Source of the DNA: Alphaproteobacteria bacterium | GTDB taxonomy: Bacteria > Pseudomonadota > Alphaproteobacteria > JAOXRX01 | Direction of reading: 5' to 3' | Length of the DNA: 64,000 nucleotides | Assembly: GCA_025800285.1 (NCBI GenBank) | Contig: JAOXRX010000037.1 | Span: 52,651-116,650 of the forward strand | Shown: positions 60,803 to 63,338 of the stretch, piece after piece | Numbering within the stretch: position 1 is the first letter of the stretch | Layout: every line of letters starts with the position of its first letter | Position numbers and translations under genes: made by a program | The notes under the pieces: generated by a model | The model's input: the letters and a program-made list of their open reading frames with translations, nothing else | Databases searched by the model: none | Told to the model about the DNA's origin: nothing

Positions 60803-62650
60803 ATGATAGAATACGATGTAATTGTAGTAGGTGGTGGACATGCTGGCTGTGAAGCTGCTGCAGCTAGTGCTAGAGCTGGAGCTAAAACAGCTTTAATAAC
60901 ACATAAGAAATCAACAATTGGAGAAATGTCTTGCAATCCTGCAATAGGAGGATTAGGCAAAGGTCATATCGTTAGAGAAATAGATGCTTTAGATGGTCTA
61001 ATGGCAAAAGTAATAGATAAAGCAGGAATTCAATTTAGAGTTCTTAATAAATCTAAAGGACCTGCTGTGCAAGGACCTAGAGCTCAAGCCGACAGAGACT
61101 TATATAAAGCAGAAATGCAAAGAATACTTAATAATTACAACAACTTAGACATAATAGAGACCGCTGTTGAAGACCTGATTATAGAAAGCGGAAAAATAAA
61201 AGGAGTTGTTGACAAAAATGGTGATAAATACAACTCAAAAGCCGTTATACTAACCACAGGTACATTCTTAAATGGTGTAATGCACATAGGTACAGAAACT
61301 AAAGAAGGTGGTAGAGTAAATGACCCAACATGCAAAGGCCTAACCCCATCTTTACAAGGAGTGGGCTTCAATATTGATAGACTTAAAACAGGGACTCCTT
61401 GCCGAATACAAAGAGATACTATAAATTGGGATATATTAGAAGAGCAAAAAGGAGATATACCTCCTGTTCCTTTTTCATATATGACTAAAGAGGTTACAAC
61501 ACCTCAAATATCTTGTGCAATTACATACACAAATGAAGAAGGCCATAAGATATTAAGAGAAAACTTCGACAGAGCCCCTTTATTCACAGGACAAATTGAA
61601 GGGGTAGGACCTAGATATTGCCCATCAATAGAAGACAAAATAACAAGATTTGCCGACAAAGAAAGACATCAAGTATTCCTAGAGCCTGAAGGATTAAACT
61701 CTAATTTAGTTTATCCAAATGGTATTTCAACATCTCTACCAGTCGATGTACAAGAAAAATTTTTAAAAACTATTCCAGGATTAGAAAATGCAGTTATGAC
61801 TCAACCAGCTTATGCTATTGAGTACGATTTCATTGATCCAAGAGAAGTAAAAGCGACACTAGAAACAAAGAAAATAAAAGGCTTGTTTTTAGCGGGACAA
61901 ATAATCGGAACAACAGGTTATGAAGAGGCTGGAGGATTAGGATTAATTGCAGGTGTAAATGCTTCCTTAAAATCACAAGAAATAGACAAAAAGTTTATAT
62001 TAGATAGGTCAGATGCCTACATTGGAGTAATGATAGATGATTTAATCACAAAAGGGACAAAAGAACCTTATAGAATGTTTACATCAAGAGCAGAATATCG
62101 CTTGGTTTTAAGAGCAGATAATGCAGATCAAAGACTTACCAAAAAAGGTGAAGAAGTAGGCTGTATTTCTCCTGAAAGAGTTGAATTCTTTCATCAAAAA
62201 ATGAAAATATTGATTGAGAGCAAAGTAATGCTTAATAGCTTAAATGCAACTCCAAATGAGCTTTCTAAAAAAGGTATAGAAATAAACAAAGATGGTAAAA
62301 GAAGAACAGCTTTTGATTTATTGACATTTGCTAGCATTTCATTTAACGACATCGAAAGTGTGTGGAGTGAATTAAAAGAAATACCAGCAGAAATTAAAAA
62401 CCAGATAGAAATAGATGCTAAATACTCGGGTTATTTAAAAAGAATTGAAGCAGATATTAAAGCCTTTAAAAAAGATGAAGCTTTAGAAATTCCTGACAAT
62501 ATAAATTACTTTGATATAGGGTCTTTATCAAATGAAATAATTCAAAAACTGGAGCAAGCAAGACCAAGCACTATTGGAATGGCCTCTAGAATATCGGGAG
62601 TAACTCCTGCTGCTATAATTGCTCTATTAAGATATGTAAAAAAACAATAA
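60803..62650 (+). CDS. mnmG: tRNA uridine-5-carboxymethylaminomethyl modification enzyme MnmG (GidA)
   Basis: [16 protein letters not shown] (FAD), [19 protein letters not shown] and YAIEYD. The start taken is the ATG at 60803, 1 nt after the ymdB stop. Confidence 0.97.
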
Positions 62651-62651
62651 A

Positions 62652-62667
62652 TGTTTCATGTGAAACA
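62652..62667. promoter_or_regulatory. parS-like centromere site TGTTTCATGTGAAACA, copy 1 (intergenic)
   Basis: One mismatch from the widely conserved parS palindrome TGTTTCACGTGAAACA. It starts 1 nt after the mnmG stop codon. Confidence 0.6.
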
Positions 62668-62729
62668 CTGAAAAAACATATTTTAACTTTTTTCTTTACT
62701 TTACCATTTTTTAGTTATATATTTTATAT

Positions 62730-63338
62730 ATGAAAAACTTATCTGATTTAGAAAAAAATGTTTCATGTGAAACACTAAAAAAATTAAAAAAATATGAAGC
62801 TTTGTTGAAAAAATGGCAAAAAGCTATCAACCTAGTTAGTAAAAACACTATAGAAAATGCCTGGGAAAGACATATTCTAGACTCTCTACAATTAATAGAT
62901 TACTTACCTAAAGACAAAGATGTTTCAATTGTTGACCTTGGTAGCGGAGGAGGGTTTCCCCCTTTGGTTTTAGCAATAGCGGGATACACAAATGTAAGTG
63001 CTATAGAAAGCGATGAAAGAAAATGCTTATTCATGGCAGAAGTAGCAAAGCAAACAGAAACAAAAATAAACATTATTAACAAAAGAATAGAAAAAGTTAA
63101 TAATTTAAAAGCAGATATAATTACATCTAGAGCTTTAGCAAAAATAGACCTACTTTTAAATCTCTCAAAAAACATAACGAAAAAAGAAACTAAGTATCTG
63201 TTTTTAAAAGGTAAAACAGCAGAAGAAGAGATAAAAAAAGCACAGGAACAGTTCGATTTTCAGGCTCAAACATTCAAAAGCATGACCTCTAATGAAGCGA
63301 AGGTCGTGAAAATCGAGCGATTAAAGGAGAAAAAATAA
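62730..63338 (+). CDS. rsmG: 16S rRNA (guanine527-N7)-methyltransferase RsmG (GidB)
   Basis: [10 protein letters not shown]...WQKAINLVS start, the SAM motif DLGSGGGFPPLVLAI and the ITSRALA motif. mnmG-rsmG synteny is preserved. Confidence 0.9.
   Translation: MKNLSDLEKNVSCETLKKLKKYEALLKKWQKAINLVSKNTIENAWERHILDSLQLIDYLPKDKDVSIVDLGSGGGFPPLVLAIAGYTNVSAIESDERKCLFMAEVAKQTETKINIINKRIEKVNNLKADIITSRALAKIDLLLNLSKNITKKETKYLFLKGKTAEEEIKKAQEQFDFQAQTFKSMTSNEAKVVKIERLKEKK
62759..62774. promoter_or_regulatory. parS-like centromere site TGTTTCATGTGAAACA, copy 2 (inside rsmG, overlapping codons 10-15)
   Basis: The 16-mer is identical to copy 1. The shared block extends to AAATGTTTCATGTGAAACACT(g/a)AAAAAA. 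Confidence 0.6.

Follow-up and report, generated by a model that had tools for sequence, protein, structure and literature searches.

The locus described here raises a simple question: what are two parS-like sequences doing on either side of the rsmG start codon, in a stretch of DNA where no parA or parB gene follows rsmG? This stretch, hereafter the window, comprises 64,000 nucleotides of contig JAOXRX010000037.1 from an alphaproteobacterium. A first-pass annotation had noted the two sites and offered three readings of them: that they serve a ParB encoded elsewhere, that they are relics of a lost parAB locus, or that their extended identity stems from duplication of a short piece of the rsmG 5' region. 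The sites and their neighbours within the window are as follows.

60791..62650, plus strand: mnmG (gidA), TIGR00136 at 853.5 bits (cutoff 524.85)
62652..62667, unstranded: upstream parS site, exact TGTTTCATGTGAAACA, 78 nt 5' of the rsmG ATG
62730..63338, plus strand: rsmG (gidB), TIGR00138 at 136.8 bits (cutoff 99.5)
62759..62774, unstranded: intragenic parS site, exact TGTTTCATGTGAAACA, rsmG codons 10-15 (N-V-S-C-E-T)
63338..63871, plus strand: first isochorismatase-family gene (PF00857), between rsmG and parA
63884..64000, plus strand: 5' part of the second isochorismatase-family gene, which runs off the window (8730-9281 on contig L001, introduced below)

For mnmG, the public gene call places the start at window-equivalent position 60803.

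The description of the two sites in the first-pass annotation proved accurate. TGTTTCATGTGAAACA occurs exactly twice in the 64 kb window, with a start-to-start distance of 107 nt. A single nucleotide separates the upstream site from the mnmG stop codon, whose last base is 62650, and the second copy occupies the rsmG codons that had been reported. The identity between the copies does extend past 16 bp, since a 31-nt block around them is 94% identical. The label of near-consensus parS is also justified: each copy matches 15 of the 16 bases of the parS consensus TGTTNCACGTGAAACA, and the sole mismatch falls at central position 8. One arm of the palindrome, GTTTCAC, is thereby perfect, and the other, GTTTCAT, is changed at its innermost base. 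Chance would supply about 0.07 matches to the 16-mer at up to 2 mismatches, and the observed count was reached in none of 100 dinucleotide-preserving shuffles. Even when up to 3 mismatches from TGTTTCACGTGAAACA are allowed, neither the window nor about 10.5 kb of sequence downstream of it contains a further parS-like site. The single arm GTTTCAC is found three times in the window, twice within the parS sites.

The apparent absence of parAB arises because the window stops at position 64000. A 23-kb public contig, L001, encodes the exact RsmG protein and overlaps the window by 8846 nucleotides without a single difference (window coordinate = L001 + 55154). It continues the locus with two further genes.

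64435-65214, window-equivalent (L001 9281-10060): parA
65218-66063, window-equivalent (L001 10064-10909): parB

The full order on L001 is rsmG, isochorismatase, isochorismatase, parA, parB, a 184-aa ORF, and a CcrM-like methyltransferase gene, with successive spacings of -1, 12, -1, 3, 2, and 39 nt. From rsmG through parB the genes are co-directional and tightly packed, and rsmG is probably the first gene of this rsmG-iso-iso-parA-parB string. A cognate chromosomal parAB pair is thus adjacent to the sites: parA begins 435 nt beyond the window end, and parA and parB lie 1.66 kb and 2.44 kb, respectively, downstream of the rsmG-internal site. The absence of parAB after rsmG is confined to the window; on L001, parA and parB are the next genes after the pair correctly recognized as isochorismatase-family paralogs. 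Because intact parA and parB are directly downstream, the idea of relics of a lost parAB locus is refuted, and a ParB encoded elsewhere is true only in the trivial sense that parB stands 2.4 kb further along the same gene string. The first-pass annotation had also proposed a comparison of the region downstream of mnmG-rsmG in relatives. Among the relatives considered below (loci L082-L091), an isochorismatase-type insert separates rsmG from parA in L082-L087, L090, and L091, as in the window; in L088/L089 the insert is an abhydrolase-like gene.

Both partition proteins carry the expected signatures. ParB harbors an N-terminal LGKGLSALLG motif, a GERRYRA CTP-binding box, and an ENLQRE motif. 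It contains domains PF02195 and PF17762 and reaches 202.5 bits on TIGR00180 (cutoff 58.45), as befits a member of the ParB/Spo0J CTPase family with its helix-turn-helix and parS-type residues. Its top match among solved structures is Caulobacter ParB in the ParB-parS co-crystal 6T1F (E 9e-56), with an alignment free of gaps through the DNA-binding domain. At the positions equivalent to Caulobacter R173, T179, A184, and G201 (numbering of the paper), it has R, L, N, and G. Jalal et al. report that Arg173 is invariable in parS-specific variants, that Gly201 is preferred, and that almost any residue is accepted at 179 and 184 (PMC7383237). The ParB thus belongs to the RxxG class, reported as parS-specific (PMC7383237). 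To judge from these features, the ParB is canonical. ParA shows a deviant Walker A motif (KGGVGKTT) and the ParA/CbiA-type domains PF10609, PF01656, and PF13614 of partition ATPases. It scores below the cutoffs of the NCBIfam equivalog models for plasmid ParA or RepA, as is expected of a chromosomal ParA.

The two 16-mers are very probably the chromosomal centromere, that is the parS cluster, of a canonical ParABS system in this uncultured, AT-rich alphaproteobacterium, with its ParB encoded about 2.4 kb downstream. On the sequence evidence, this would be an ordinary centromere rather than an orphan or a relic. Since the steps of ParABS are well established (PMC5815017, PMC7333895), ParB dimers would be predicted to nucleate on each parS, to close as CTP-dependent clamps, and to slide over the neighbouring few kilobases, including their own operon. 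ParA would then move the ParB-parS complex in segregation, and the complex would probably load SMC. ParB would be expected to tolerate the GTTTCAT arm. What we observe at this locus are the sites and genes, the motifs of ParB, and the conservation; binding, spreading, and segregation are what we infer. The number of parS sites is known to range from 1 to over 20, and a single one is often enough (PMC7333895). In the partial genome sequence, smc was not found, and further parS sites, perhaps stronger ones, may lie elsewhere in the genome. Near 50.3 kb, at a distance of 12.3 kb from the parS sites, both GC skew and gene orientation flip. The cumulative skew has its minimum in a divergent intergenic region of 88 bp. 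The window showed no cluster of DnaA boxes, and neither dnaA nor hemE is among its annotated genes.

Several known systems can be compared with this locus. In Bacillus subtilis, the consensus TGTTNCACGTGAAACA bound by Spo0J tolerates mismatches, and a functional parS can lie in coding sequence. The host gene there is spo0J and not rsmG, and the parS sites are dispersed over tens of kilobases. Caulobacter crescentus ParABS shares with the window the same 16-bp core and sites that cluster beside parAB, some of them intragenic, and its ParB is the closest solved homologue, with specificity residues common to both proteins. Caulobacter parS sites are clustered near ori, some within genes (PMC5815017). 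The two loci differ in that Caulobacter has at least 5 strong sites within 5 kb, about 8 kb from the origin, whereas the window has two, both CATGTG-centred, and in that two isochorismatase-family genes separate rsmG from parA here. In Pseudomonas aeruginosa, which has parS1-4 and parS half-sites, imperfect palindromes and single arms are bound by ParB (PMC5961200); the core is mostly GTTCCAC there, with hundreds of dispersed half-sites. Finally, Noc is a ParB-family protein that recognizes a 16-bp palindrome, NBS, which differs from parS at two positions per half-site. With G2 and A7, the window sites follow parS and not the TATTTCCCGGGAAATA core. At the specificity positions, the ParB of this locus carries Arg and Gly, and Noc carries Gln and Arg. 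On the Noc model TIGR04285 this ParB scores 238, below the cutoff of 315, so that neither the sites nor the protein are of the Noc type.

How old is the rsmG-internal site? The closest MnmG among species-representative genomes is 65% identical, and 80 loci from such genomes were retrieved with MnmG and mapped for parS-like sites and for the four genes. An RsmG match at the alphaproteobacterial level was present at 54 of the 80, and 25 loci were non-alphaproteobacterial. A parS in frame near the RsmG N-terminus was found at 48 of the 54 alphaproteobacterial loci, in 46 cases at exactly the orthologous offset, and at none of the 25 others. The perfect site, GTT TCA CGT GAA ACA (V-S-R-E-T), is present in 35 of the 48. 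These loci range in GC content from 0.33 to 0.65 and yet the synonymous positions do not vary, which argues for selection on the DNA. The segment is N-terminal to the conserved RsmG core, the TIGR00138 match beginning only at residue 19. Of 120 RsmG homologues, 72 have VSRE(T) as this motif, 14 have VSCE(T), and 3 have VSHET, the last two being the same variant duplex read in two orientations (CATGTG and CACATG). This pattern indicates that the rsmG-internal parS is ancient in Alphaproteobacteria and that the RsmG residue, be it R, C, or H, follows the DNA, V-S-R-E-T being in effect parS translated.

The upstream site was followed in a clade of AT-rich relatives, L082-L091, which were recovered through a protein collection and whose RsmG identity to the window ranges from 98% down to 66%. 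Every relative examined has a parS within rsmG at +29 (+56 in L088/L089) and a second one 75-89 nt 5' of the rsmG ATG, the latter at nine distinct clade loci; L083 and L088 have a third copy, at -115 and -130, respectively. The gene that precedes rsmG varies: the window has mnmG there, L083 and L085 have a small ORF, and L084 and L087 have ddl. The upstream parS therefore belongs to the rsmG 5' region and not to the end of mnmG. The spacing between the twin sites is 107-131 nt in the clade and is not helically phased.

This geometry, with sites at -78 and +29 relative to the rsmG ATG in the window, brings to mind an operator. ParB bound at both positions could bracket an rsmG-parAB promoter and autoregulate the operon, the centromere role being secondary or exercised elsewhere. 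Between the sites there do lie the rsmG start and a weak promoter-like element, found by a consensus scan.

62695..62723, plus strand: tentative candidate sigma-70-like promoter, TTTACT-17-TATATT, between the parS sites

The packed, co-directional genes from rsmG to parB and the conserved position relative to the rsmG ATG in the clade fit such a role, and ParB repression of promoters adjacent to parS in P. aeruginosa is described in one report (PMC5521831). The promoter match, however, is not above chance (2 sites in the scan against 3.6 expected in shuffles), the internal site is kept across Alphaproteobacteria whatever the upstream arrangement, and the twin spacing lacks helical phasing. Moreover, an operator is compatible with centromere function and is no true alternative to it. 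Since the sites bracket the rsmG start and this weak element, ParB autoregulation is plausible as an additional role; as the main explanation of the sites we consider it rather unlikely.

In a second possibility, only the internal site matters, and the upstream copy arose without function as a by-product of a short duplication at the rsmG 5' end or of a gene-conversion tract. The 31-nt block of near identity speaks for it, as do a lineage-specific C at +1 common to both window copies and the flanks, which agree at 17-18 of 30 positions within a genome (window and L085), the mean across genomes being 12.5. These flanks are A-runs in an A-rich genome, however, and the comparison between genomes tells a different story: the upstream parS keeps 14.7 of its 16 positions (about 92%), whereas its flanks keep 13.6 of 30 and are near random; random window pairs give 8.5. 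Site conserved and flanks not is thus the pattern at orthologous positions in L082-L091. As the flanks have been randomized, a recent duplication is not supported, and the short duplication envisaged in the first-pass annotation, taken as a recent and functionless event, does not agree with a 16-mer that is conserved in the same place down to 66% RsmG identity. Its presence at nine of nine distinct clade loci and the third copy in two relatives likewise count against a by-product, which appears improbable. The upstream parS is more readily seen as old, clade-wide, and under purifying selection at its non-central positions, although an ancient duplication may lie behind it, or occasional gene conversion may have acted on it. 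Concerted evolution of the two copies was also considered. Flank identity is slightly higher within genomes, and both copies have the same centre in 3 lineages out of 4, an agreement that lacks significance (roughly p 0.3, binomial estimate) and is at most suggestive.

The central mismatch remains to be explained. In the clade, the centre is CG in L088 (all three sites) and in the upstream site of L090; TG in the window, L082, L091, L085, and L087; and CA in L084, in the upstream sites of L083, and in the internal site of L090. The only other variation of the 16-mer in the clade is one T1-to-A change. When the centres are placed on an RsmG tree, CG is basal, and L087 (TG/TG) and its sister lineage L084 (CA/CA) differ from each other, a distribution that implies several independent transitions at a single CpG. 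The same variant stands beside par or gid genes in other low-GC lineages, namely L030 and several Ignavibacteria/Melioribacter loci, and loci with a variant centre have lower GC than CACGTG-only loci (Mann-Whitney p 1e-5, with relatedness of loci ignored). Among the matches listed for the exact variant 16-mer in public metagenomes, 80 loci were examined, and 19 of them hold a homologue of MnmG, RsmG, ParA, or ParB within 2.7 kb of a parS-like site, where a rough estimate of chance gives well under one locus. The change of centre is best read as decay of the only CpG in the site under AT-biased mutation.

Has this decay cost the sites their function? If the C-to-T change had weakened or abolished ParB binding, both copies would be decaying relics, with a working centromere elsewhere; both sites are indeed imperfect, and the scan covered part of the genome. 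Against this, parAB is intact and adjacent, no further parS-like site occurs within about 73 kb, and the non-central positions of the intergenic copy are all under clear purifying selection. In its recognition helix and specificity residues, ParB does not differ from the ParB of genomes whose parS sites are perfect. In P. aeruginosa, the half-site logo from ParB ChIP-seq tolerates C-to-T at position 7, and GTTTCAC and GTTTCAT, which are exactly the two arms of the window site, are each at least 4-fold enriched at ParB peaks (PMC5961200), so that GTTTCAT half-sites are bound in vivo. Decaying relics are accordingly very improbable. Co-evolution of ParB with the variant centre was rejected as well, the recognition region being unchanged; the sole clade-specific ParB change, Gly to Asp just before KSRSH, is absent from L030, another lineage with the variant site. 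In the open literature, the exact variant 16-mer and shorter cores returned nothing relevant; the text of Jalal 2020 does not state contacts to the central base pair, and a ParB review mentions neither gid genes nor mismatches.

That the palindrome instead acts in RNA, as a hairpin or as a terminator of mnmG, or binds some unrelated regulator is hardly credible: it is an imperfect inverted repeat directly after a stop codon, but its second copy is intragenic, 15 of its 16 bases match parS, its G2 and A7 are those of parS and not of the Noc site (PMC7383237), and RNA folding (z-score -0.40 against shuffled sequence), the terminator scan (no terminator-like site at the locus), and Rfam (no match in the region) led to its rejection.

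With an ordinary centromere as the preferred explanation, the apparent anomaly of parS without parAB is cleared up as a window-edge effect. The locus would be a standard gidA-gidB-(insert)-parA-parB region, and the current understanding of ParABS is unchanged. The recurrent decay of the CpG amounts to a natural mutational scan and suggests that ParB tolerates the innermost C-to-T change. A wider proposal, for and against which we would weigh the chances equally, is that the N-terminal extension of alphaproteobacterial RsmG is an in-frame carrier of an ancient centromere, its five codons held for ParB binding and not for the protein, and that the CpG decays independently in AT-rich lineages without a compensating change in ParB. 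Such decay would mean that ParB in effect does not read the innermost base pair of either arm, and asymmetric parS sites would then be fully functional centromeres. A parS embedded in rsmG throughout the class may offer a natural example of a DNA-level constraint that shapes a protein motif.

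Genes between 18.8 and 50.2 kb of the window lie nearly all on the minus strand, and those between 50.3 and 64 kb nearly all on the plus strand. The minimum of the cumulative GC skew falls at 50336, 12.3 kb from the pair of parS-like sites around the rsmG start, and the polarity resembles that of an origin. The intergenic region at the switch spans only 88 bp and contains one copy of a TTAA-N7-TTAA motif; no DnaA-box cluster was found within it. This region and two genes of the window are located as follows.

18852-20027, cyclic-nucleotide-binding ion-channel homologue
30330-31295, Mito_fiss_Elm1-family protein (PF06258)
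50261-50348, intergenic region at the orientation switch

Throughout the uncultured AT-rich clade to which the window belongs, two to five small hydrolase genes, of the isochorismatase, His_Phos_1 and abhydrolase families, form an insert that separates rsmG from parA. Their tight packing would fit co-transcription with the partition genes. Between parB and a CcrM-like methyltransferase gene, all three long clade contigs (L001, which is identical to the window over 8846 nt and runs on into parA and parB, and the relatives L082 and L083) conserve an ORF of 183-184 aa that follows parB after a 2-nt gap and has no match in Pfam or NCBIfam.

Hydrolase genes between rsmG and parA: window 63338-64000; L001 8184-9281
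The same in the relatives: L083 10618-13235; L088 787-1527; L090 1407-2740
ORF 3' of parB: L001 10912-11466 (window-equivalent 66066-66620); L082 13337-13891; L083 14888-15439

Directly after the mnmG stop, the upstream parS copy creates a six-codon mini-ORF (ATG TTT CAT GTG AAA CAC TGA, 62651-62671), which is probably meaningless.

Contig L140 (ODTK01003963.1, 1-6229) carries 26 parS-like sites with at most one mismatch in 6.2 kb. They form two arrays (105-1964 and 4932-6157) on either side of genes for an Oxidored_FMN protein and an SBF-like transporter; neither a ParA nor a ParB homologue was found on this 6.2-kb contig.

Outside the Alphaproteobacteria, the Ignavibacteria/Melioribacter loci (L046-L080) harbor paired parS-like sites just 5' of mnmG (20-150 nt upstream) and not in rsmG; in several low-GC loci these have a CATGTG or CACATG centre, as in the window's clade. 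In about 20 Rhodobacterales genomes (L019-L045 and similar loci), a perfect parS starts 2 nt ahead of the MnmG alignment start, at about position 9999. Besides the site in rsmG, these genomes seem to share a second conserved parS, this one overlapping a gene start.
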